DNA from: Nitrospinota bacterium
Lineage (GTDB): Bacteria; Nitrospinota; Nitrospinia; Nitrospinales; JACRGP01
DNA: 64,000 nt
Assembly (NCBI GenBank): GCA_016207065.1
Contig: JACQQK010000109.1
Span: 1,666 to 65,665 of the forward strand
Reading direction: 5' to 3'
Shown here: piece after piece, positions 1 to 61,403 of the stretch
Layout: each line of letters starts with the position of its first letter
Position numbering within the stretch: position 1 is the stretch's first letter
The notes under the pieces: model-generated
Databases searched by the model: none
Seen by the model: only the letters and a program-made list of their open reading frames with translations
What the model was told of the DNA's origin: nothing
Program-made: the position numbers and the translations under genes

Positions 1-704
1 GATGGCGATTTTCGACTGGATCGCGTGGTACCCCGCCCCCAACGGGTCCATTTCCGGGTTGAACAGGGTCAGCACCCGGTTTTTTTGGTAGTCCCTTAAA
101 AAAAACCAGAGCGCCGGAGCGACCATGACTCCCGACAGGCATAGCCGTATGAGAGTGCGGTTTTCCAGCTCCACCGCGAAAACGAACGCCAGAAAGATAA
201 AGGCGGTCATCATGCCCGTCCCCAGGTCGGGCTGGACGGCGATCAACAATACGACGACGACGGTCATGATCGCGGGGACGAGCAGGTCCTTGAGGTGGTA
301 CTTCCCCGCATTCCTTCCGGTTTCGAAATATTTGGCCAAGGCGACGATCAAGGCCAGCCTGGCAAATTCGGAAACCTGGAGGGTCAGCGGCCCGACGTGT
401 ATCCATCGGCGCGCGCCGTAAAAAATAACGCCGTAAAACAAAACGTACACCAGCGCCAGGACCGTCGCGCCATAGATCAGATAGGCGTAACGGCTCAGCA
501 GGGCGTAGTCGATCATGACCGCGACGACGAGGGCCGCCAGACCGTATAAAATCCAGAAAATCTGCTTGAGATACAGGTTCCGGAAAAACGCCTCGGGCCG
601 GCCATGGTTGGCGCTGTAAATGACCAGGACGCCGAGCAGGGAAACGCCCAGAATCAGCAGAAAATACCACCAGTTGAAATTGGCAACCAGGCGACGGTCA
701 ATCA
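1..704 (-). CDS. rodA: SEDS-family peptidoglycan glycosyltransferase RodA, N-terminal ~234 aa (3' end runs off the window start)
   Basis: Absent from the ORF track because it is open at the window edge. My reverse-strand translation from ATG (complement of 702-704) reads MIDRRLVANFNWWYFLLILGVSLLGVLVIYSANHG...AVQPDLGTGMM...LFNPEMDPLGAGYHAIQSKIAI. It is multi-TM and has the RodA-type QPDLGT and DPLGAGYH.IQSKIAI motifs. Confidence 0.88.
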
Positions 705-4302: not shown

Positions 4303-4329
4303 CCGGCGGGGCGCCGGAGCCAAATGGGC

Positions 4330-4612
4330 CCGGCTTGGATGGCGAATAGAGTTCGTCGAGCGCATTCCAAGTTTGGCCATTCCGCTCCAAGGCGGTCCTT
4401 GGCGCCTCCGGCGTCATGCTGACGCCGGACCCAATGCCGCCCCGTCATCGCGAGCCGCCGCGGGCGGCGTGGCGATCCAGTTTTTCTGGACGGCTTCGCT
4501 ACGCTCGCAATGACGCCCTCTCGCCATCCCGCGCGACGCTGGGTTCATTACCGCCCCGGCGCAAGCGCGGGGCGGCGTCGCCTCCGGGCGTTGGCCCGGG
4601 GATTATTTTTTT
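4330..4612. repeat. Composite of GC-rich hairpin modules (mosaic intergenic repeat locus 1)
   Basis: Module GATGGCGAAT..GGCCAT.CCGCTCC matches 10661-10710. Module GTCATCGCGAGC...GCTCGCAATGAC (4444-4513) matches 31416-31556. Module TTACCGCCCCGGCGCAAGCGCGGGGCGGC (4547-4577) recurs at 12991-13020, 25286-25315 and 61104-61133. Confidence 0.85.
4584..4612 (+). terminator. Intrinsic-terminator-like hairpin + T-run forming the last module of the mosaic repeat
   Basis: CCGGGC-GTTG-GCCCGG (6-bp GC stem, tetraloop) followed by GGATTATTTTTTT. The same module lies at 13064-13089. The T-run overlaps the stop/KK codons of the convergent gene 4603..5202. Confidence 0.35.
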
Positions 4613-9440: not shown

Positions 9441-9537
9441 AGGCGGCCTTTTCGAATGCGGGCGGGATTCCGGCCTTAAGTAATGCGGGAGAGATCGGGC
9501 TTTCCTCGTCCCGCGCGGTATTATTTCTTACGGGACA

Positions 9538-10399: not shown

Positions 10400-10784
10400 C
10401 GCGCCCGGCAAGGATTTCCCGAGGGCCGGATTATTTGTGTCCGGGCGGGCCTTCCCCCGATAATGCCCTCGACAGGTTACGCGCCTGGCGCGCCGGCCCG
10501 GTCCCCGTCTCCGTTTGGTTTGCCCATTCAGCCTCGCTTTATCCCCAATCCCCCAAATACGCCTCCGCCCTTTCCGCAACGAGACCTTGGCATATGCCGT
10601 ATTGTAGTTGCCTGATTCATCAGGCCAGCGTGACGCTGGACTCAAATAGGCTCGGCTCCGATGGCGAATGGGAGTCATCGGGGGCAATCCGGGCCTGGCC
10701 ATCCCGCTCCGGGGCGTTCCCCGGTCAAGGGAGGGGAGTAATTTGAGGGCCGAGCCAAAGGGTTCATTTTGTTAGACGCTCTTA
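10400..10784 (-). repeat. Mosaic repeat locus 2, ending in the terminus ...GTTAGACGCTCTTA
   Basis: 10625-10784 is a near-perfect reverse complement of 60853-61011. 10594-10622 (TTGTAGTTGCCTGATTCATCAGGC) shares a module with the MITE at 56455-56577. The terminal TTA is the stop codon (TAA) of gene 10782..12851. Confidence 0.9.
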
Positions 10785-12851
10785 TGGTTCTTCCTTGACC
10801 AGGGGTTCCCAGACGTAGGCGTTGAGTTTGCCTTTGCGGACCAGGAGCCAGGGCTTGTCGTTGTAGAGCGTCTCGGTGCGCTCGACCAGCAGGAGTTTCT
10901 CTCCCTTGTCCGCCGCGGCGAGTTGCGGCGACGCCGGGTCGGGAGACCTTTTCAGGACCACCCCGTCGATGCGCGGCACGACGTAGCGGGGTTTCGGTCC
11001 CGCCGACGTCCTCGACTCCGCTTTCGTTTCCGGTTGCGGCGGCCGGCCCGCAGGCGCCGGTTGCGCGGGCGGTCCGGGTTTTACCGGCTCCTTGACCGCC
11101 GGGAATTGGGGAAGAGCGACGCTTCTCTCCGCGGGCTCCGAGTCCCGCGGGGCCGGGGGCCCGGCCATGACGGGCTCCTGGGGTTTCGGCGCTTGCGGGG
11201 CGCTGGGTTCTTTCGGTTGGGGTATGCGCGGTTCCCCGGCGGGTTGTTCCGCTTGCAAGGGAGGAAGCTTCACGCTCAAGGTCTCCAGGGAGGCCACCTG
11301 CGGGGGCTTCTCGGAGAACCGCACGAAGACGGGATTGGACAAAAGGTATTGATTCGCGTCCAACTCGGCTTTCACGCGATAGAAGGCCCGCCCCTTGCGT
11401 ACCGCCTCTTCGTCCTTCCAGACCAACTCGAGCGGCAGGACGCCTCTTTCTTCCTTTACCAATTCGCCGTTGCGGACGATCGAGATTTTCACGGCCTTTC
11501 TGCTTTCCCGGGTCGAGCCGACCTTGACTTTCACTTCCGGCGCGTTGTTGGCGACGAGTTCTTCTCCCGGCAGGGCGGACGCCGCTCCGTCGGAGACCGA
11601 GAATTGGTCGAGGGACAATCGCTCTTCCGCGGCGGACTGGCGGACGGCGTACATCCTGCCATGGAGCATGGCGTCATGGACCGAGCGGACGGATTTGTCC
11701 CTGACCAGCAACACCGTCCGGACGCCGCCCAGGGTCCGGTCGTCCTGTCCCTCGCAGTGAAAGTCGTTCGAGCCATAAGCCCAGACCGGGTATTTTCTTT
11801 TCCCCTGGATGAACTGGACGAGCGCGCGGTCCCACTCGTTTCCGGGCTCCGCCGCCGGGACCGGCCGGTCGGACACGGCCTGGAAGCCGGTATAATTCTC
11901 GGTGAGCGTCAAGTCCTGGGGGTGGGGCGGGGTGTTGGTCCCGACCGATCCGGCGATGCCCGCGCCCGCTCCCGGTTCGAGCGAACTCCAGAAAACCATC
12001 GCCCCCCTGGACACGGCGTAATCGATCAGTTCCTGATAGGGCCCGGCGCCGCGGTCGCCATGGTACTGGTCGAACGGGGAACTGCGAAAGGGGTGATGGC
12101 TCAGCGCCAGGAGAAAGGCAAAAACGCACAAGGGGACGGTCAACTTGCGCGCCACGCGCTTGTAGACCATGCCCAGCAGGACCAGAAAAAGTACCGCGCA
12201 AAAGAAAAACTCGTTGACGAATTTCCGCGCGTACCTGCCGGAAAAGGGGCCGTTGAGAACAGGAAGCCGTTCGTAGTCCTCCGGCGTTTGCAGGCCCACC
12301 ACCAACAGCCGTTTGTCCCAGTTGTTGGCGACCAGGCTTTTATCGAACACGCTTCCCGTCCAGTAGTAGAAAGGCGCGCTGTCGACCGCCGGGACCATCA
12401 GCAGGTCCTTGAACTTGTTTTTATTCTGTTCGATCTCGGAGAGGTACCCCTCTGCGCCCAGGGAAAGAATGGAAGGCCCCGCGTCTTTTTTCTTGAAGAT
12501 CCGTTCCAGGGGCCAGATGCCGTATTCCAGCGACCTCTGGTCGTGGTCCCCGTATATGACCGCGTCGATCCCGCGATGCTGGGCGATGTTGCCCAACTCG
12601 CTCACGGTGGAGCAACCGTCGCTGAACCGGGTCTTGACTCCCACGACGGCGTCGATCGGCGCGTAGTCGGCGAACGCCGGGCCCTGCGGGGCCCCGCCCA
12701 AAACCAGGGCGGAACACAGGAACGCCGCCCGAACGGCGTCCGGCGTTTTTCGCGAAAGGGCCTTGAGACCGGCGCGGAGACACACGCGGGCTACGCTCAT
12801 CCAATTACCGGGCGAAGAGAGTTGCATAGAGAGTCCGTATGCGGATTTCAT
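10782..12851 (-). CDS. Membrane-anchored PHP-like (degenerate) domain protein with Pro-rich linker and SH3-like C-terminus
   Basis: VKTRFSDGCSTVSELGNIAQHRGIDAVIYGDHD resembles the PHP N-terminal motif but lacks the HxH. A two-helix hydrophobic insert (FFFCAVLFLVLLGMVY...LCVFAFLLALSHH) splits the domain. Then about 110 aa of P/A/Q-rich linker and a small C-terminal beta-rich domain. Confidence 0.55.
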   Translation of the reverse strand: MKSAYGLSMQLSSPGNWMSVARVCLRAGLKALSRKTPDAVRAAFLCSALVLGGAPQGPAFADYAPIDAVVGVKTRFSDGCSTVSELGNIAQHRGIDAVIYGDHDQRSLEYGIWPLERIFKKKDAGPSILSLGAEGYLSEIEQNKNKFKDLLMVPAVDSAPFYYWTGSVFDKSLVANNWDKRLLVVGLQTPEDYERLPVLNGPFSGRYARKFVNEFFFCAVLFLVLLGMVYKRVARKLTVPLCVFAFLLALSHHPFRSSPFDQYHGDRGAGPYQELIDYAVSRGAMVFWSSLEPGAGAGIAGSVGTNTPPHPQDLTLTENYTGFQAVSDRPVPAAEPGNEWDRALVQFIQGKRKYPVWAYGSNDFHCEGQDDRTLGGVRTVLLVRDKSVRSVHDAMLHGRMYAVRQSAAEERLSLDQFSVSDGAASALPGEELVANNAPEVKVKVGSTRESRKAVKISIVRNGELVKEERGVLPLELVWKDEEAVRKGRAFYRVKAELDANQYLLSNPVFVRFSEKPPQVASLETLSVKLPPLQAEQPAGEPRIPQPKEPSAPQAPKPQEPVMAGPPAPRDSEPAERSVALPQFPAVKEPVKPGPPAQPAPAGRPPQPETKAESRTSAGPKPRYVVPRIDGVVLKRSPDPASPQLAAADKGEKLLLVERTETLYNDKPWLLVRKGKLNAYVWEPLVKEEP

Positions 12852-12859
12852 ATACTACC

Positions 12860-13090
12860 TTAGAGCGTCTAACAAAATGAACCCCTTGGCTCGACCCTCA
12901 AATTACTCCCCTCCCTTGAGGGAGGGGGCTGGGGGAGGATGACCAGCGTGAACGCTGGATCCGACGCCGCCTCAGGCTGACGCCGGATCCATTACCGCCC
13001 CGGCGCAAGCGCGGGGCGGCATTGCCCACCGGGGGCGTCCCCGGTGTCATCGCCGTAGCGCCTCCGGGCGCCGGCCCGGCTTATTTTTTA
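12860..13090 (+). repeat. Mosaic repeat locus 3, beginning with the terminus TTAGAGCGTCTAACAAAATGAAC
   Basis: The first ~58 nt match 60853-60910 and the reverse complement of 10727-10784. 12935-13055 match 61030-61170. Ends in the hairpin + T-run module (13064-13089). Confidence 0.9.
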
Positions 13091-24826: not shown

Positions 24827-25416
24827 TGCGCGTTAGACAATCCCCGCAGATACAAGACCAATTCCCAGATCTCGTTGTCGTCCAGGAACTTGTAGGACGG
24901 CATGCCGGTCGCCAGGGAACCGTTCTTGATGGTCCAGAACATCTGCCCGTCGGAAACCTCCTTCATGGTCTCCGCGCAGTTGAAGTTGCGGGGTATCGCG
25001 GCGAGTCCCTGGGCCATCATGCCCATGCCGTTGCCGGAGGCGCCGTGACAGATTTTGCAGGCGGTGGGTTGCGCCTGCGCCTGGAACAGAGATTCCCCCT
25101 TCGTCAAGTTCTCCGCGGTGGGTTGCAAAGGGTTGGCCTTGTCGAGATACTCCCTGGGAGCCTGCGGGACGGTGCGCGTCTGCGGGCATAGGCCCTTGCC
25201 CCCCCGGCCCATCCCGTGATGCAACGAGTGGCGGTCGCCATGGTGCGGCCGGCCCTCGTGCATGGCCAGCGTGACGCTAGACTCATTACCGCCCCGGCGC
25301 CAGCGTGGGGCGGCGTCGCCCCCGGCGGCCAGCGCGACGGGTGGAAAGGAACCCCAGCAAAAAAATAAAAACGCCAGGCAACCGGCGGCGGCGTATGGAC
25401 ATGCTCGTTTCGTCAT
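24823..25416 (-). CDS. Monoheme c-type cytochrome (paralog 2) with His-rich linker containing an in-frame repeat element
   Basis: SD GAGGAA upstream of the ATG, signal peptide, CKICHG and the same C-terminal motif. Its stop overlaps the next gene's start (ATGA). Confidence 0.88.
   Translation of the reverse strand: MTKRACPYAAAGCLAFLFFCWGSFPPVALAAGGDAAPRWRRGGNESSVTLAMHEGRPHHGDRHSLHHGMGRGGKGLCPQTRTVPQAPREYLDKANPLQPTAENLTKGESLFQAQAQPTACKICHGASGNGMGMMAQGLAAIPRNFNCAETMKEVSDGQMFWTIKNGSLATGMPSYKFLDDNEIWELVLYLRGLSNAQ
25264..25330. repeat. Copy of the dispersed hairpin modules (CCAGCGTGACGCT.GACTC + TTACCGCCCCGGCGC.AGCG.GGGGCGGCGTCGCC) inside a CDS
   Basis: Aligns with 10625-10643, 4547-4582, 12991-13025 and 61104-61140. 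Translated in-frame as GGDAAPRWRRGGNESSVTLA within cytochrome 24823..25416. Confidence 0.85.
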
Positions 25417-29598: not shown

Positions 29599-29714
29599 GG
29601 GCATCTCTAAAAATTGCTTTTTCTCGAATCCAACCGTTCCTGAAAAAGTTGTAGTTGCCCAATTTATTGGGCTTTTGGAGCGCCTGATGAATCTACAATT
29701 TTTAGAGATGCTCC
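29599..29714 (+). mobile_element. MITE-like element, copy 1 (terminal inverted repeats GGGCATCTCTAAAAA / TTTTTAGAGATGCTCC)
   Basis: 116 bp flanked on both sides by CTATAT (candidate target-site duplication). The reverse complement of 56455-56577 aligns along the whole length. Confidence 0.8.
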
Positions 29715-31249: not shown

Positions 31250-31407
31250 TAAGAGCGTCTAATAAAATTTCACATAACTTTCCTCCCCCTTGACGGGGGA
31301 GGTCAGGTGGGGGTGAAAAACCAGCCCACCCTCCCCCAGCCCCCTCCCTCAAGGGAGGGGAGCATTTGTGGGGCCAGACCATCAATTCATTTTGTTAGAC
31401 GCTCTAA
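31250..31407. mobile_element. Complete ~158-bp element with both inverted termini TAAGAGCGTCTAA.AAAAT... / ...ATTTTGTTAGACGCTCTAA
   Basis: Has the same termini as the half-copies at 10784, 12860 and 60853. The interior holds two GC hairpins (CCTCCCCCTTGACGGGGGAGG and CCCTCCCTCAAGGGAGGG). Confidence 0.8.
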
Positions 31408-31415
31408 CAAGATTC

Positions 31416-31556
31416 GTCATCGCGAGCCGCCCACTCGCCGCGGATAATTCCGCCTCGGCGCAAGCGCGAGGCGGCGTTGCCCCCCGGGGGCTTCCCCGGC
31501 GGCGTGGCGATCCAGCATGCTAGACTGCTTCGTCGGCATAGCCTCCTCGCAATGAC
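31416..31556. repeat. Hairpin-module repeat (GTCATCGCGAGC ... CTCGCAATGAC with internal CGCCTCGGCGCAAGCGCGAGGCG hairpin)
   Basis: A longer relative of 4444-4513. Contains the ATG at 31552 that the ORF track uses for the downstream transporter. Confidence 0.8.
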
Positions 31557-49390: not shown

Positions 49391-50655
49391 AAGACCGGCC
49401 CGACTACCTCGCCATCCATTCCTGGGCCCTGTACGATTTCGCCAACACCATCTTCTCCATGAACGTCGTCTCCCTGTACTTCGCCCTGTGGGTGACGGTG
49501 GACAAGGGCGGCGAGGACATCCTGTACAGCTTCGCCCTTTCGGGCTCGATGCTGGCGGTCGCCGTAAGCGTGCCGGTCTTCGGCGCCCTGTCCGACCAGA
49601 CCCGCAGACGCGTCGGCCCCTTGACCGTCCTCACCCTGGTCGCGGTATTCTGCACCGGCGCCATCGGATTCGCGGACAACGTGTTCGCGGGGCTCGTCCT
49701 GTTCGCCTTCGCCAACTACGGGTATCAATCGTCGCTGGTGTTTTACAACGCCATGCTCCCCCACATCTCGCGGGGCGCCAGCCTGGGGATCGTCTCCGGC
49801 TATGGGGTGGCCCTGGGGTATCTGGGGTCCATCGCCGGACTGCTGATGGTGAAACCGTTCGTCAACCAGGCCGGCCGGCCGGCGGCCTTCCTCCCTACGG
49901 CGGCGATGTTCCTGGTCTTCTCCATCCCGTGTTTCGTCTTCGTCAAGGACCCGTCTCCGGATTACTCCCGGAAAATCCAGGTCGGGCAGGCTTTCCGGAC
50001 CTTGAAACAAACCGTCCTCGACGCCGGAAAGTACCGGAACCTGTTTCACTTCATCCTCATCCATTTCCTGGTCCTGGACGTGGTCAACACCGTGATCGCC
50101 TTCATGTCGGTTTACGCCAACAAGGTGATCGGTTTCAACGACTCCGAAATCTCCACGTTCCTGATCGTTTGCACCGCGGCGGCCATGGTCGGATCCTATC
50201 TCATCGGCTGGCTGGTGAAAAAGAAGGGGACCTTGTGGTCGTACTGGCTGGTGTTGTGGTTGTGGGCCGCGGCGCTGGCGTGCGCCGCGGCGAGCCCCGG
50301 CGAAACCATGTTCTGGGCGGTGGGGCCCCTGGCCGGGATGGGGATGGGAGGGGTATGGGTCGTCAGCAGACCCATCCTGGTGGAACTCGCCCCGCCGGAA
50401 AAAATCGGCGAATTTTTCGGCGCCTATGGCCTCGCCGGGAAGATGGCTTCCATCATCGGCCCCCTGTTGTTGGGGACCATCGTGCTCGTTTTGGAAAAAG
50501 AGCCGACGCTCAAATACCGGGCCGCCGTGTTCGCCCTTCTGGTCCTCGCCATGGTCGCCATTTTCCTGTTCCATGCGCTGGACCGCCGCTTGACCTTGGA
50601 GCGTTGCGCCCAGCGTGCCGCTGGATCCAGCGGGCTTGACTCGGACGGCGAATGA
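49387..50655 (+). CDS. MFS transporter, UMF1/Atg22-like family
   Basis: ATG overlaps the FGE stop (ATGA). ...HSWALYDFANTIFSMNVVSLYF... and 12 TM helices. The last ~15 codons and the stop lie inside a mosaic repeat. Confidence 0.85.
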   Translation: MKDRPDYLAIHSWALYDFANTIFSMNVVSLYFALWVTVDKGGEDILYSFALSGSMLAVAVSVPVFGALSDQTRRRVGPLTVLTLVAVFCTGAIGFADNVFAGLVLFAFANYGYQSSLVFYNAMLPHISRGASLGIVSGYGVALGYLGSIAGLLMVKPFVNQAGRPAAFLPTAAMFLVFSIPCFVFVKDPSPDYSRKIQVGQAFRTLKQTVLDAGKYRNLFHFILIHFLVLDVVNTVIAFMSVYANKVIGFNDSEISTFLIVCTAAAMVGSYLIGWLVKKKGTLWSYWLVLWLWAAALACAAASPGETMFWAVGPLAGMGMGGVWVVSRPILVELAPPEKIGEFFGAYGLAGKMASIIGPLLLGTIVLVLEKEPTLKYRAAVFALLVLAMVAIFLFHALDRRLTLERCAQRAAGSSGLDSDGE

Positions 50656-50770
50656 GCGTCATCGAGGGCAATCCGGGCCTGGCTGTTGCCGCCCCTGGCG
50701 AGTGGGCGGCTCGCGATGACAGGGCGGCGCCAGATCCAACGGCGCGTTGGCCGGTTCCCTCCGCCGCACA
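50609..50770. repeat. Mosaic repeat locus (modules CCAGCGTGCCGCTGGATCC, GACGGCGAATGAGCGTCATCGAGGGCAATCCGGGCCTGG, GGCGGCTCGCGATGAC)
   Basis: Aligns with 10625-10700 and with 4444-4460/31416-31430 in inverted sense. Overlaps the 3' end of the MFS gene. Confidence 0.8.
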
Positions 50771-56454: not shown

Positions 56455-56577
56455 GGGCATCTCTAAAAAGTTGTAGTTGCCTGATTCATCAGGCGCTCCA
56501 AAAGCCCAATAAATTGAGCAACTACAACTTTTTAGAAACGGTTGGATTCAAGAAAAAGGCAATTTTTAGAGATGCCC
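56455..56577 (-). mobile_element. MITE-like element, copy 2 (GGGCATCTCTAAAAA ... TTTTTAGAGATGCCC)
   Basis: 123 bp with perfect 15-bp terminal inverted repeats. It is the reverse complement of copy 1 (29599-29714) plus a ~8-bp indel. It starts 35 bp upstream of the receiver gene start. Confidence 0.85.
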
Positions 56578-60779: not shown

Positions 60780-60852
60780 AATGAAACCTCCATCGTGGCT
60801 GGCAAGGCGAGAAAAACCGGGTCCTCGGAATTTTACTAACAAATCTATTGCA

Positions 60853-61180
60853 TAAGAGCGTCTAACAAAATGAACCCTTTGGCTCGACCCTCAAATTACT
60901 CCCCTCCCTTGACCGGGGAACGCCCCGGAGCGGGAGGGCCAAGCCCGGATTGCCCACGATGACTTCCATTCGCCATCGGAGCCGAGCCTATGGAGTCCAG
61001 CGTCACGCTGGGGAGGGGGCGGGGGGAGGGTGACCCGCGTGAACGCTGGACCCGATACCGCCTCAGGCTGACGCCAAGGGCGGCCGGCGTGACGCCGGAT
61101 TCGTTATCGCCCCGGCGCAAGCGCGGGGCGGCATTGCCCACCGGGGGCGTCCCCGGCGTCATCGCCGCGTTGCCGCGACT
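60853..61180 (+). repeat. Mosaic repeat locus (largest copy), starting TAAGAGCGTCTAACAAAATGAAC
   Basis: 60853-61011 is the reverse complement of 10625-10784. 61030-61170 matches 12935-13055. Contains the CGCCCCGGCGCAAGCGCGGGGCG hairpin. Confidence 0.9.
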
Positions 61181-61403
61181 CCCTGGGCCACCGCCGGTAG
61201 GCGATGCCGTAATAACACGCGGCGTTCAGGCCGATCAAACCCCAGAGGACGGCGACGCCCAGACCCTCGCTGACTTCCTCGAGGGCCGATTCCTCATGGT
61301 CTTTGTCCCCTTCGTCCGCCGACAAAGGCAAGCGCCGCGAGAAAAGCCAGGACGAAAAAACAGGCGAGCGGGAATTTAAATCCGTTACCGCCGCGCCGGG
61401 ACA

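Follow-up and report, generated by a model that had tools for sequence, protein, structure and literature searches.

A mosaic family of miniature inverted-repeat transposable elements with IS5-type ends, very probably mobile in recent times, in a Nitrospinota genome

Short repeats sharing one terminus recur in a 64-kb stretch of DNA from a Nitrospinota bacterium (the window, 64,000 nt, contig C45:1666-65665), and two of them adjoin a single 2-kb gene on its two sides. Our analysis revealed that these repeats are very probably a genuine and recently mobile family of MITEs (miniature inverted-repeat transposable elements), with ends of the IS427 group in the IS5 family of insertion sequences (ISs) and a 3-bp target-site duplication of the form TWA (TTA or TAA). 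The interior of the element is an unusually reshuffled patchwork of GC-rich hairpins and is not derived from an IS. The family was followed in its source genome (G000), a 2.96-Mb draft of 190 contigs with 58% GC and 79.6% completeness, and in a sister species of the same genus (G001), a groundwater Nitrospinota metagenome-assembled genome (MAG; JACRGP01) that is 71% complete. A first reading, made from the letters of the window only (the sequence-only reading), had described the repeats as a non-autonomous and modular family that is highly active or recombinogenic in this genome, and this description is borne out genome-wide by empty and filled sites and by insertions and deletions of modules at copies orthologous between the two sister species.

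Genome-wide distribution and mobility

The core terminus GAGCGTCTAACAAAATGAA is a 19-nt terminal inverted repeat that occurs 154 times in the source genome at up to 3 mismatches, and 39 pairs of termini facing inward, 94-394 bp apart, delimit complete copies. Perfect TTA...TTA or TAA...TAA flanks are present on 26 of these 39 copies; since the flanks are direct and not inverted repeats, they are target duplications and lie outside the terminal inverted repeat. Reconstruction of the target gives T-W-A, preferably preceded by a pyrimidine and followed by a G (Y-TWA-G), often in the form of TAAGG or TTAGG. The copies are 94-407 bp in size, carry no transposase gene and are spread over more than 80 contigs. 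The assembly is broken by the family: a large number of termini are found less than 300 bp from the end of a contig, and at least 29 contig ends fall within a copy. The 407-nt copy folds strongly as a single strand (z = -6.2), with the terminal repeats as the closing stem. By the definition of MITEs that we used (Delihas 2011, PMC3184786), all the expected features are found, namely terminal inverted repeats, a target duplication, small dispersed units without a transposase, past mobility and a long single-strand stem-loop.

The sequence-only reading had proposed a genome-wide census, with confinement to the window as the result that would speak for a local duplication, and the counts above show that the family is not so confined. 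A local duplication or an assembly artefact limited to this contig, for which nothing speaks beyond the first impression of clustered copies, can be dismissed outright, for besides the many contigs of the source genome, the sister species, whose genome was assembled separately, and two other Nitrospinota MAGs have copies as well. Moreover among 41 genomes from the family and the order, termini at up to 2 mismatches number 124 in the source genome and 198 in the sister species, while each of the 39 others has 0-1; the burst of this MITE is thus confined to one genus.

Sites that are exactly empty, found in either species, are proof of transposition. In the window, positions 9477-9479 read CCT-TAA-GTAATG, where the sister species reads CCT-TAA-(407-bp element)-TAA-GTAATG. 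When the joined flanks of 36 complete copies of the source genome were used as queries against the sister species, at least six copies turned out to be absent there: the sites of C34:475, C136:2847 and C2:9754 are exactly empty, with a single TAA or TTA and flanks otherwise 93-100% identical, and those of copies on C66, C112 and C83 are approximately empty. Three empty sites of the sister species have a different insertion 20-45 bp away. Unchanged orthologous copies occur in both species at C23:20919 and C145:10634, and the assembly of the sister species lacks the unique flanks of the window copies at 12863-13090, 31250-31407 and 60853-61174. The presence/absence polymorphism that had been suggested as a check is thus observed between two sister species in the form of exact single-TWA empty sites.

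This kind of element is well known (PMC3184786), while the family, its presence in this phylum and the detailed account of module turnover given below appear to be undescribed in the literature searched; a search for the terminus sequence returned an unrelated match only, and no paper on Nitrospinota MITEs was found.

Structure of the element and its copies in the window

A 407-bp full-length copy from the sister species was taken as the reference. The end-points of BLAST alignments on it cluster at 72, 108, 180, 252 and 351, and six interior modules were defined accordingly (Table 1). Different combinations of these modules make up size classes of ~95, 109, 155, 207, 260, 305 and 407 bp, and the modules are nested: M4 lies within the loop of the B-end hairpin CCCCTCCC-TTGA-GGGAGGGG, and M1-M3 lie within a GGTGGG/CCCACC stem.

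Table 1. Features of the window and modules of the 407-bp reference copy
Feature	Position	Strand	Basis or remark
Module A	reference 1-72		
Module M1	reference 73-108		
Module M2	reference 109-180		
Module M3	reference 181-252		
Module M4	reference 253-351		
Module B	reference 352-407		
Terminus-less hairpin array	4327..4612		M4-like and M2/M1-like modules and CGTCATCGCGAGC palindrome; terminal hairpin followed by TTATTTTTTT
Empty TAA target	9477..9479		sister species has a 407-bp copy here with TAA on both sides
Half of an unrelated palindromic MITE-like element (GTTGTAGTTGCCTGATTCATCAGG)	10605..10629	+	adjoins inner border of left copy
One-ended MITE copy (left copy), M4 and B-end, without the A-end half	10625..10781	+	reference 253-407; BLAST 93% over 157 nt
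TTA target-site triplet of left copy	10782..10784		is the TAA stop codon of the minus-strand gene
Resident 689-aa gene, family unassigned, not cargo	10782..12851	-	homologues and synteny
TTA target-site triplet of right copy	12860..12862		8 nt upstream of the gene's ATG (12849-12851)
One-ended MITE copy (right copy), B-end, M3, M2 and M1	12863..13070	-	reference 352-407, 187-253, 82-178; BLAST
Terminator-like hairpin CCGGGC-GCCG-GCCCGG, then CTTATTTTTT	13064..13089	+	consensus scan
Solo M2-like module	25264..25329	-	82% over 67 nt to reference 116-182
Complete copy of 152 bp (31253-31404), from A-end to B-end	31250..31407	+	TAA duplications at 31250-31252 and 31405-31407
Terminus-less hairpin array	31408..31556		M2-like hairpin inside CGTCATCGCGAGC...GCAATGACG palindromic element; adjoins complete copy
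Solo M4-like module	50609..50683	+	81% over 75 nt to reference 252-326
One-ended copy: TAA flank (60853-60855), B-end, M4, M3, M2, part of M1	60853..61174	-	reference 90-407

In the window, the 23-mer TAAGAGCGTCTAACAAAATGAAC is found with 0-2 mismatches at 10762-10784(-), 12860-12882(+), 31385-31407(-) and 60853-60875(+), against a chance expectation of 0 and zero matches in 100 shuffles. A fifth terminus at 31250 is genuine as well and has a 2-nt deletion (TAAGAGCGTCTAATAAAAT--TTCAC), hence it is missed by a search at 3 mismatches; all five termini pointed out by the sequence-only reading are therefore real. The other likenesses it had noticed between copies also hold. The long repeat in opposite orientation near 10625-10784 and 60853-61011 corresponds to 96% complementarity over 141 nt between 10646-10786 and 60851-60991; the shared stretch of ~58 nt with a switch to other modules beyond it corresponds to 97% complementarity over 58 nt between 10725-10782 and 12862-12919, with divergence thereafter; and the unit regarded as complete at 31250-31407 is a 152-bp element with TAA on both sides, whose fold consists of a stem made by the terminal repeats and three hairpins within it (z = -5.6).

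All seven loci that had been listed as mosaic align to the reference by BLAST, at 4528-4588, 10625-10781, 12863-13070, 25264-25329, 31269-31501, 50609-50683 and 60856-61174. However, positions 10400-10624, which had been counted with the second of them, fall outside the family, as they are ordinary non-repeat sequence that the sister species shares, in colinear order and at 96% identity. The terminus GAGCGTCTAACAAAATGAA of the left copy reads inward from 10781, and its inner border is at the CCAGCGTGACGCTGG hairpin, where the sister species runs on into different modules. The right copy has neither M4 nor the A-end, a full-length counterpart for comparison being C174:8412-8715 of the source genome, and its target context on the strand of the gene is TAAGG, which is Shine-Dalgarno-like. 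The copy at 60853-61174 is 94% identical to the reference over 320 nt with the A-end missing, and ~20 full-length copies in the sister species run past its break point. A scan of the window against Rfam at gathering thresholds gave no match.

With eight full-length copies as queries, module sequence was located at 430 loci of the source genome, which add up to 43.9 kb, and ~1.5% of the genome DNA is therefore repeat-derived. Among these loci are the 39 complete MITEs, 29 loci with one terminus at a contig edge, 36 internal loci with one recognisable terminus, several of which are complete copies with a degenerate second end, and 315 loci without a terminus. As a repeat layer, the hairpin modules thus extend beyond the MITE. 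They form a mosaic of several palindromic unit types, where six modules occur in variable combinations inside as well as outside the element.

Other palindromic repeats are present as well. A second, unrelated palindromic MITE-like family, with ends GGGCATCTCTAAAAA... and core GTTGTAGTTGCC...GGCAACTACAAC, occurs in the window at 29599-29714 and 56455-56577 and as the half copy at 10605-10629. In the sister species (L015, reverse complement, 2620-2800), a GC hairpin module array of ~100 nt is located at the exact centre of the copy orthologous to the one at window 10605, so that the modules colonise the centres of two unrelated element families. Another palindromic family, with ends CGTCATCGCGAGC...GCTCGCAATGACG, is present at 4443-4515, 31416-31556 and ~50690-50720 of the window and at ~37 sites of the genome by a one-mismatch count of its end motif; its sites are interspersed among the hairpin modules, and one MITE copy (C49:4805-4986) also contains it. 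For coding sequence, at C104:20466-20667 of the source genome, M4 (101 bp) lies inside an apparent coding region for a thioredoxin-domain (YyaL-like) protein (...FYVWTQEEIEKVLGRQT / AWRVPYYNVTPRGNFE...), as two tandem units there and as one in the sister species (L140), and neither length is a multiple of three.

Two groups of modular bacterial repeats invite comparison. The Correia elements of Neisseria are likewise high-copy MITEs close to genes, with size classes that differ by an internal segment, and promoter or terminator effects have been proposed for them; they have other ends, a TA duplication and two size classes, whereas the present family has six modules, at least seven size classes and modules outside the element too. 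The bacterial interspersed mosaic elements (BIMEs) of E. coli (PMC3184786) and the BOX elements of S. pneumoniae resemble it as mosaic or modular short palindromic units in intergenic DNA, but they have no terminal inverted repeats or target duplications, and repetitive extragenic palindromes (REPs) depend on a REP-associated tyrosine transposase (RAYT), while here IS5-type ends and a TWA duplication frame the mosaic. The organisation had been called BIME-like, and this is apt for the interior hairpin layer, which is a mosaic, and not for the terminus-bearing unit with its inverted ends and 3-bp duplication.

Turnover of modules after insertion

Orthologous copies in the two sister species document cleanly, as a natural record, the remodelling of a MITE interior, one module at a time, that follows insertion. 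Three such copies share identical flanks, duplication, orientation and private end variants between the species, yet differ by whole modules. At C174:8412, the copy is 304 bp in the source genome and 439 bp in the sister species, which has M4 in the loop of the B-hairpin and a swapped central module; at C69:4935, the lengths are 308 bp and ~428 bp, with M4, a 20-nt hairpin in the loop of the A-hairpin and a B-end of another subfamily in the sister species; and at C15:4477, they are 264 bp and ~308 bp, with the central module swapped. One-ended copies stop at module junctions, and position 253 of the reference, in the CCAGCGTGACGCTGG hairpin, recurs as the break in both directions. The terminus-less arrays are polymorphic too, and their insertions and deletions are flanked by direct repeats of 4-8 bp. 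For example, a terminus-less array of 128 bp is absent in the sister species and has CCGG microhomology at its borders, an M4 array has two tandem units in the source genome versus one in the sister species, and a 97-bp insert in the latter is bounded by the direct repeat GCCTCCGG. The left copy of the window adds a case at its inner border: the sister species has the same unique flank and the same GTTGTAGTTGCCTGATTCATCAGG half, then different modules and the other half of that element, and a rearrangement has taken place there in one or the other genome.

After insertion, then, modules are lost, gained, swapped or duplicated in place. This probably happens through recombination or gene conversion between copies together with replication slippage at the short repeats or hairpins that the junctions share; the same process would leave one-ended copies that are broken off where modules join. 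The presence of short direct repeats at the borders agrees with slippage, or with recombination, at hairpins that the junctions have in common. Alternatively, the GC-rich hairpin modules could be a second and independent mobile or self-propagating layer that prefers the centres (hairpin loops) of palindromic elements. Its targets might then include this MITE, the unrelated 116-bp MITE-like family and even coding genes, and some other enzyme or repair pathway may be responsible. We regard such a second layer as unlikely; if it were true, the interior of the MITE would record nested, loop-targeted insertions and not recombination or deletion alone. The element itself is classified as an IS5-type MITE, which is an ordinary kind of element.

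The cognate insertion sequence and its transposase

A scan of one genome per species showed that the exact 19-mer of the MITE end occurs in many phyla. In Keguizhuia sedimenti (L025:4794-5674), it forms the identical inverted ends of an 881-bp element with a TTA duplication, which encodes an OrfA with a DUF4096-type N-terminus (103.5 bits on NF033580) and, overlapping it, an OrfB with a DDE domain (DDE_Tnp_1_2; 129.9 bits on NF033580, cut-off 110). Eight more ISs of 890-902 bp with the same ends are found in Actinomycetota, Gammaproteobacteria, Pirellulales, Thermoguttaceae, Natronospirales and an unclassified MAG, with a TWA duplication in every one, so that all nine autonomous ISs have the TWA duplication and all 19 positions of their ends are identical with those of the MITE. 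The nearest annotated relatives, on plasmids, are named IS5 family transposase and, in one case, IS5-like element IS402 family. These features agree with the IS427 group, whose members are ~830-865 bp long with two overlapping open reading frames (ORFs), a frameshift and 2-4-bp repeats (PMC3281130), and the related IS1031 group recognises three nucleotides (PMC2516522). As the 19-nt ends and the TWA duplication are those of IS5-family ISs, the observations point to a cognate transposase of DDE type, from the IS427 group of the IS5 family, and not to a RAYT or an IS200/IS605-type TnpA.

The likeness to the IS427 group (IS402-like) ISs and their derived MITEs thus consists in the identical 19-nt ends, a 3-bp TWA duplication within the 2-4-bp range and autonomous relatives of 881-902 bp with overlapping OrfA (DUF4096) and OrfB (DDE_Tnp_1_2) that match NF033580; the differences are an unrelated interior and a cognate IS not found in the genus. 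The Nitrospinota MITE has nothing in common with the IS beyond the 19-nt ends, and with its interior unrelated the MITE is not a deletion derivative. A eukaryotic parallel is offered by the MITEs of the Tourist/mPing type, which are short inverted-repeat elements with a 3-bp TWA (TTA/TAA) duplication mobilised by PIF/Harbinger, the eukaryotic relative of IS5; given their eukaryotic hosts and a different transposase architecture, this is an analogy with the Nitrospinota MITE and not membership of one group. A 2-bp TA duplication with a parent of IS630 type was considered too and was rejected, as the TTA...TTA and TAA...TAA flanks require 3 bp and the autonomous ISs with the same ends encode IS5-type transposases.

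Two side observations concern these ISs and their ends. At the run GGGGGAAAAAAC of the Keguizhuia element, the frame of OrfB is +1 with respect to OrfA, against -1 in the copies of L041, L079 and L067; possibly the Keguizhuia element has undergone a change of 1-2 nt in its slippery run and is inactive. Moreover the exact end GAGCGTCTAACAAAATGAA with TTA or TAA duplications frames lineage-specific MITEs with unrelated interiors (L027, L036, L042, L045, L049, L052, L064, L078, L096 and others), in hosts that include Burkholderiales, Planctomycetota, Thermodesulfovibrionales, Bdellovibrionales, Sulfuricaulis and Bordetella. One IS end has given rise to MITEs repeatedly across phyla, and a single exact 19-nt end is common, in many phyla, to autonomous ISs and to lineage-specific MITEs whose interiors are unrelated.

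On this basis, an IS427-type transposase, unassembled in or lost from this genome, would bind the 19-nt ends and move the elements in trans, with insertion at Y-TWA-G sites that would often be TAA stop codons or lie just upstream of a ribosome-binding site. Several observations weigh against this reading. In six-frame searches, no IS with these ends was found in the source genome, the sister species or three family relatives, and DUF4096/NF033580 gave no match above cut-off in the sister species and these relatives (G001-G004). The sole NF033580-type transposase of the source genome, at C25:141-1061, is 34-36% identical to the cognate type and lies between the ends GGACTTATCCATAAATAAT. In a metagenome scan for an autonomous copy resident in Nitrospinota, where 80 of 574 relatives were kept and the terminal repeat was present on 20 of the 80 loci, none had flanks matching the source genome. 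Moreover 13 of the 39 complete copies are without a perfect duplication; the ~315 terminus-less loci imply that transposition of the MITE alone cannot explain the spread of the modules; and at C180:20985 and C73:1412 the copies in the two species belong to different subfamilies, differ in size and lie in opposite orientation, with the same imperfect TTA...TAA flanks in both species at C73:1412. These two sites may reflect either a hot spot that was used more than once or a replacement by way of the inverted ends. As for the missing IS, the searched assemblies of genus and family are 71-96% complete, and the failure to find it in assemblies that are 71-80% complete and broken at repeats is weak evidence that it is absent.

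The IS at C25:141-1061 (L004) is the only IS427-group IS assembled in the source genome. It is 921 bp long with ends AAGGACTTATCCATAAATAAT and overlapping OrfA and OrfB, has no clear target duplication and is located at the start of its contig. As a parent of the MITE it was rejected, since the ends are not the same, with 9 of 19 positions matching by eye, and the identity of its transposase to the cognate type is as low as given above. On the contig of the window none of the searched transposase families is encoded, which confirms and extends the earlier remark that the window holds no transposase.

The sequence-only reading had proposed a RAYT or an IS200/IS605-type TnpA as the cognate enzyme, with the repeats as palindromic units of REP/BIME type. 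The GC-rich hairpin mosaic, which also stands alone and in arrays at the many terminus-less loci, would suit such an origin, and the sister species does encode a RAYT (NF047646, 91.7 bits versus a cut-off of 80). But palindromes of REP/BIME type, which are 20-40 nt long, are without inverted ends or duplication, and elements spread by RAYT make none, while inverted ends of 19 nt and a duplication of 3 bp, as in the IS5 family, mark the terminus-bearing unit; in addition no Y1 transposase was found in the source genome. The RAYT of the sister species is moreover flanked by a different REPIN, GGAGTGCAAAGCC..GGCTTTGCATGCAACGCG..CGCGTTGCACTCC, which has ~14 sites in the source genome and none in the window, and so belongs to a separate repeat system. 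Spread of the repeats by these enzymes is very improbable overall, and for the terminus-bearing element it is refuted. The RAYT gene itself is at C60:23794-24327 (L105:1405-1938), with its own REPIN, in full GGAGTGCAAAGCC..GGCTTTGC-ATGCAACGCG..CGCGTTGCACTCC, on both sides (GGAGTGCAAAGCCnGGAGGCTTTGC / GCAACGCGnnGnCGCGTTGC).

The gene between the left and right copies

The 2-kb gene between the left and the right copy had been called PHP-like by the sequence-only reading, an assignment that finds no support: searches of its 689-aa protein against Pfam and NCBIfam gave no match even at a loose threshold, and PHP is absent from the weak hits. The protein has homologues of 40-52% identity in 19 of 25 relatives across the order, and in six of the seven relatives looked at, as here, its upstream neighbour in divergent orientation is a response-regulator gene.

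The two element termini do adjoin the gene at 0 and 8 nt, at the TTA triplets 10782-10784 and 12860-12862 as had been noticed, and this proximity could suggest a composite transposon or the marks of a cassette that brought the gene in. We consider that highly improbable. Both flanking copies have their outer terminus beside the gene, extend away from it and are without A-ends; with the outer ends at the gene and the far ends missing, the gene is not enclosed by any pair of ends that read inward. Neither is the gene patchy or foreign as cargo would be, since its homologues and their divergent response-regulator neighbour are conserved in the relatives. The inward-facing bracket, to which the sequence-only reading had given weight, is therefore without special meaning: it is a by-product of the density of the elements and of their target preference, and the two one-ended copies would have inserted independently beside a resident gene.

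Placement of the repeats and possible regulatory roles

The repeats occupy promoter or terminator positions of real genes, for example in the divergent region between the 689-aa gene and the response regulator. Whatever the origin of the copies and hairpin arrays, one could suppose that the host now retains them for regulation (as insulators between divergent genes, mRNA stabilisers or intrinsic terminators), which would explain their placement at gene ends. The canonical terminator-like hairpin with its T-run at 13064-13089, which is formed by the hairpin of module M1 at the truncation point, and a similar end at 4590-4612 are in line with this, as are the strong single-strand folds given above (z = -5.6 and -6.2) and the frequent insertion at TAAGG, between a stop codon or promoter and the ribosome-binding site. 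On the other hand, the consensus scan found no promoter-like site facing the 689-aa gene and only one good terminator-like site, the one at 13064-13089; the terminator-like sites number 6 against 3.7 +/- 2.1 in shuffles, which is not significant; and many copies are absent in the sister species. Nor does the overlap with stop codons exceed the background, since 6 of 56 TAA flanks coincide with the stop codon of an ORF that is at least 200 codons long, versus 5.3% of all TAA sites, and targeting of stop codons, considered as a separate proposal, was rejected because this is no meaningful enrichment. Retention as regulatory parts thus seems to us a doubtful explanation.

The repeats are also liable to be miscalled as small ORFs. 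A minus-strand ORF of 75 codons at 61104-61331 has a membrane-helix-like stretch, and its last ~24 codons come from the truncated MITE copy (61104-61174); the copy may have taken the place of a small gene's 3' end here, or the ORF may be spurious.

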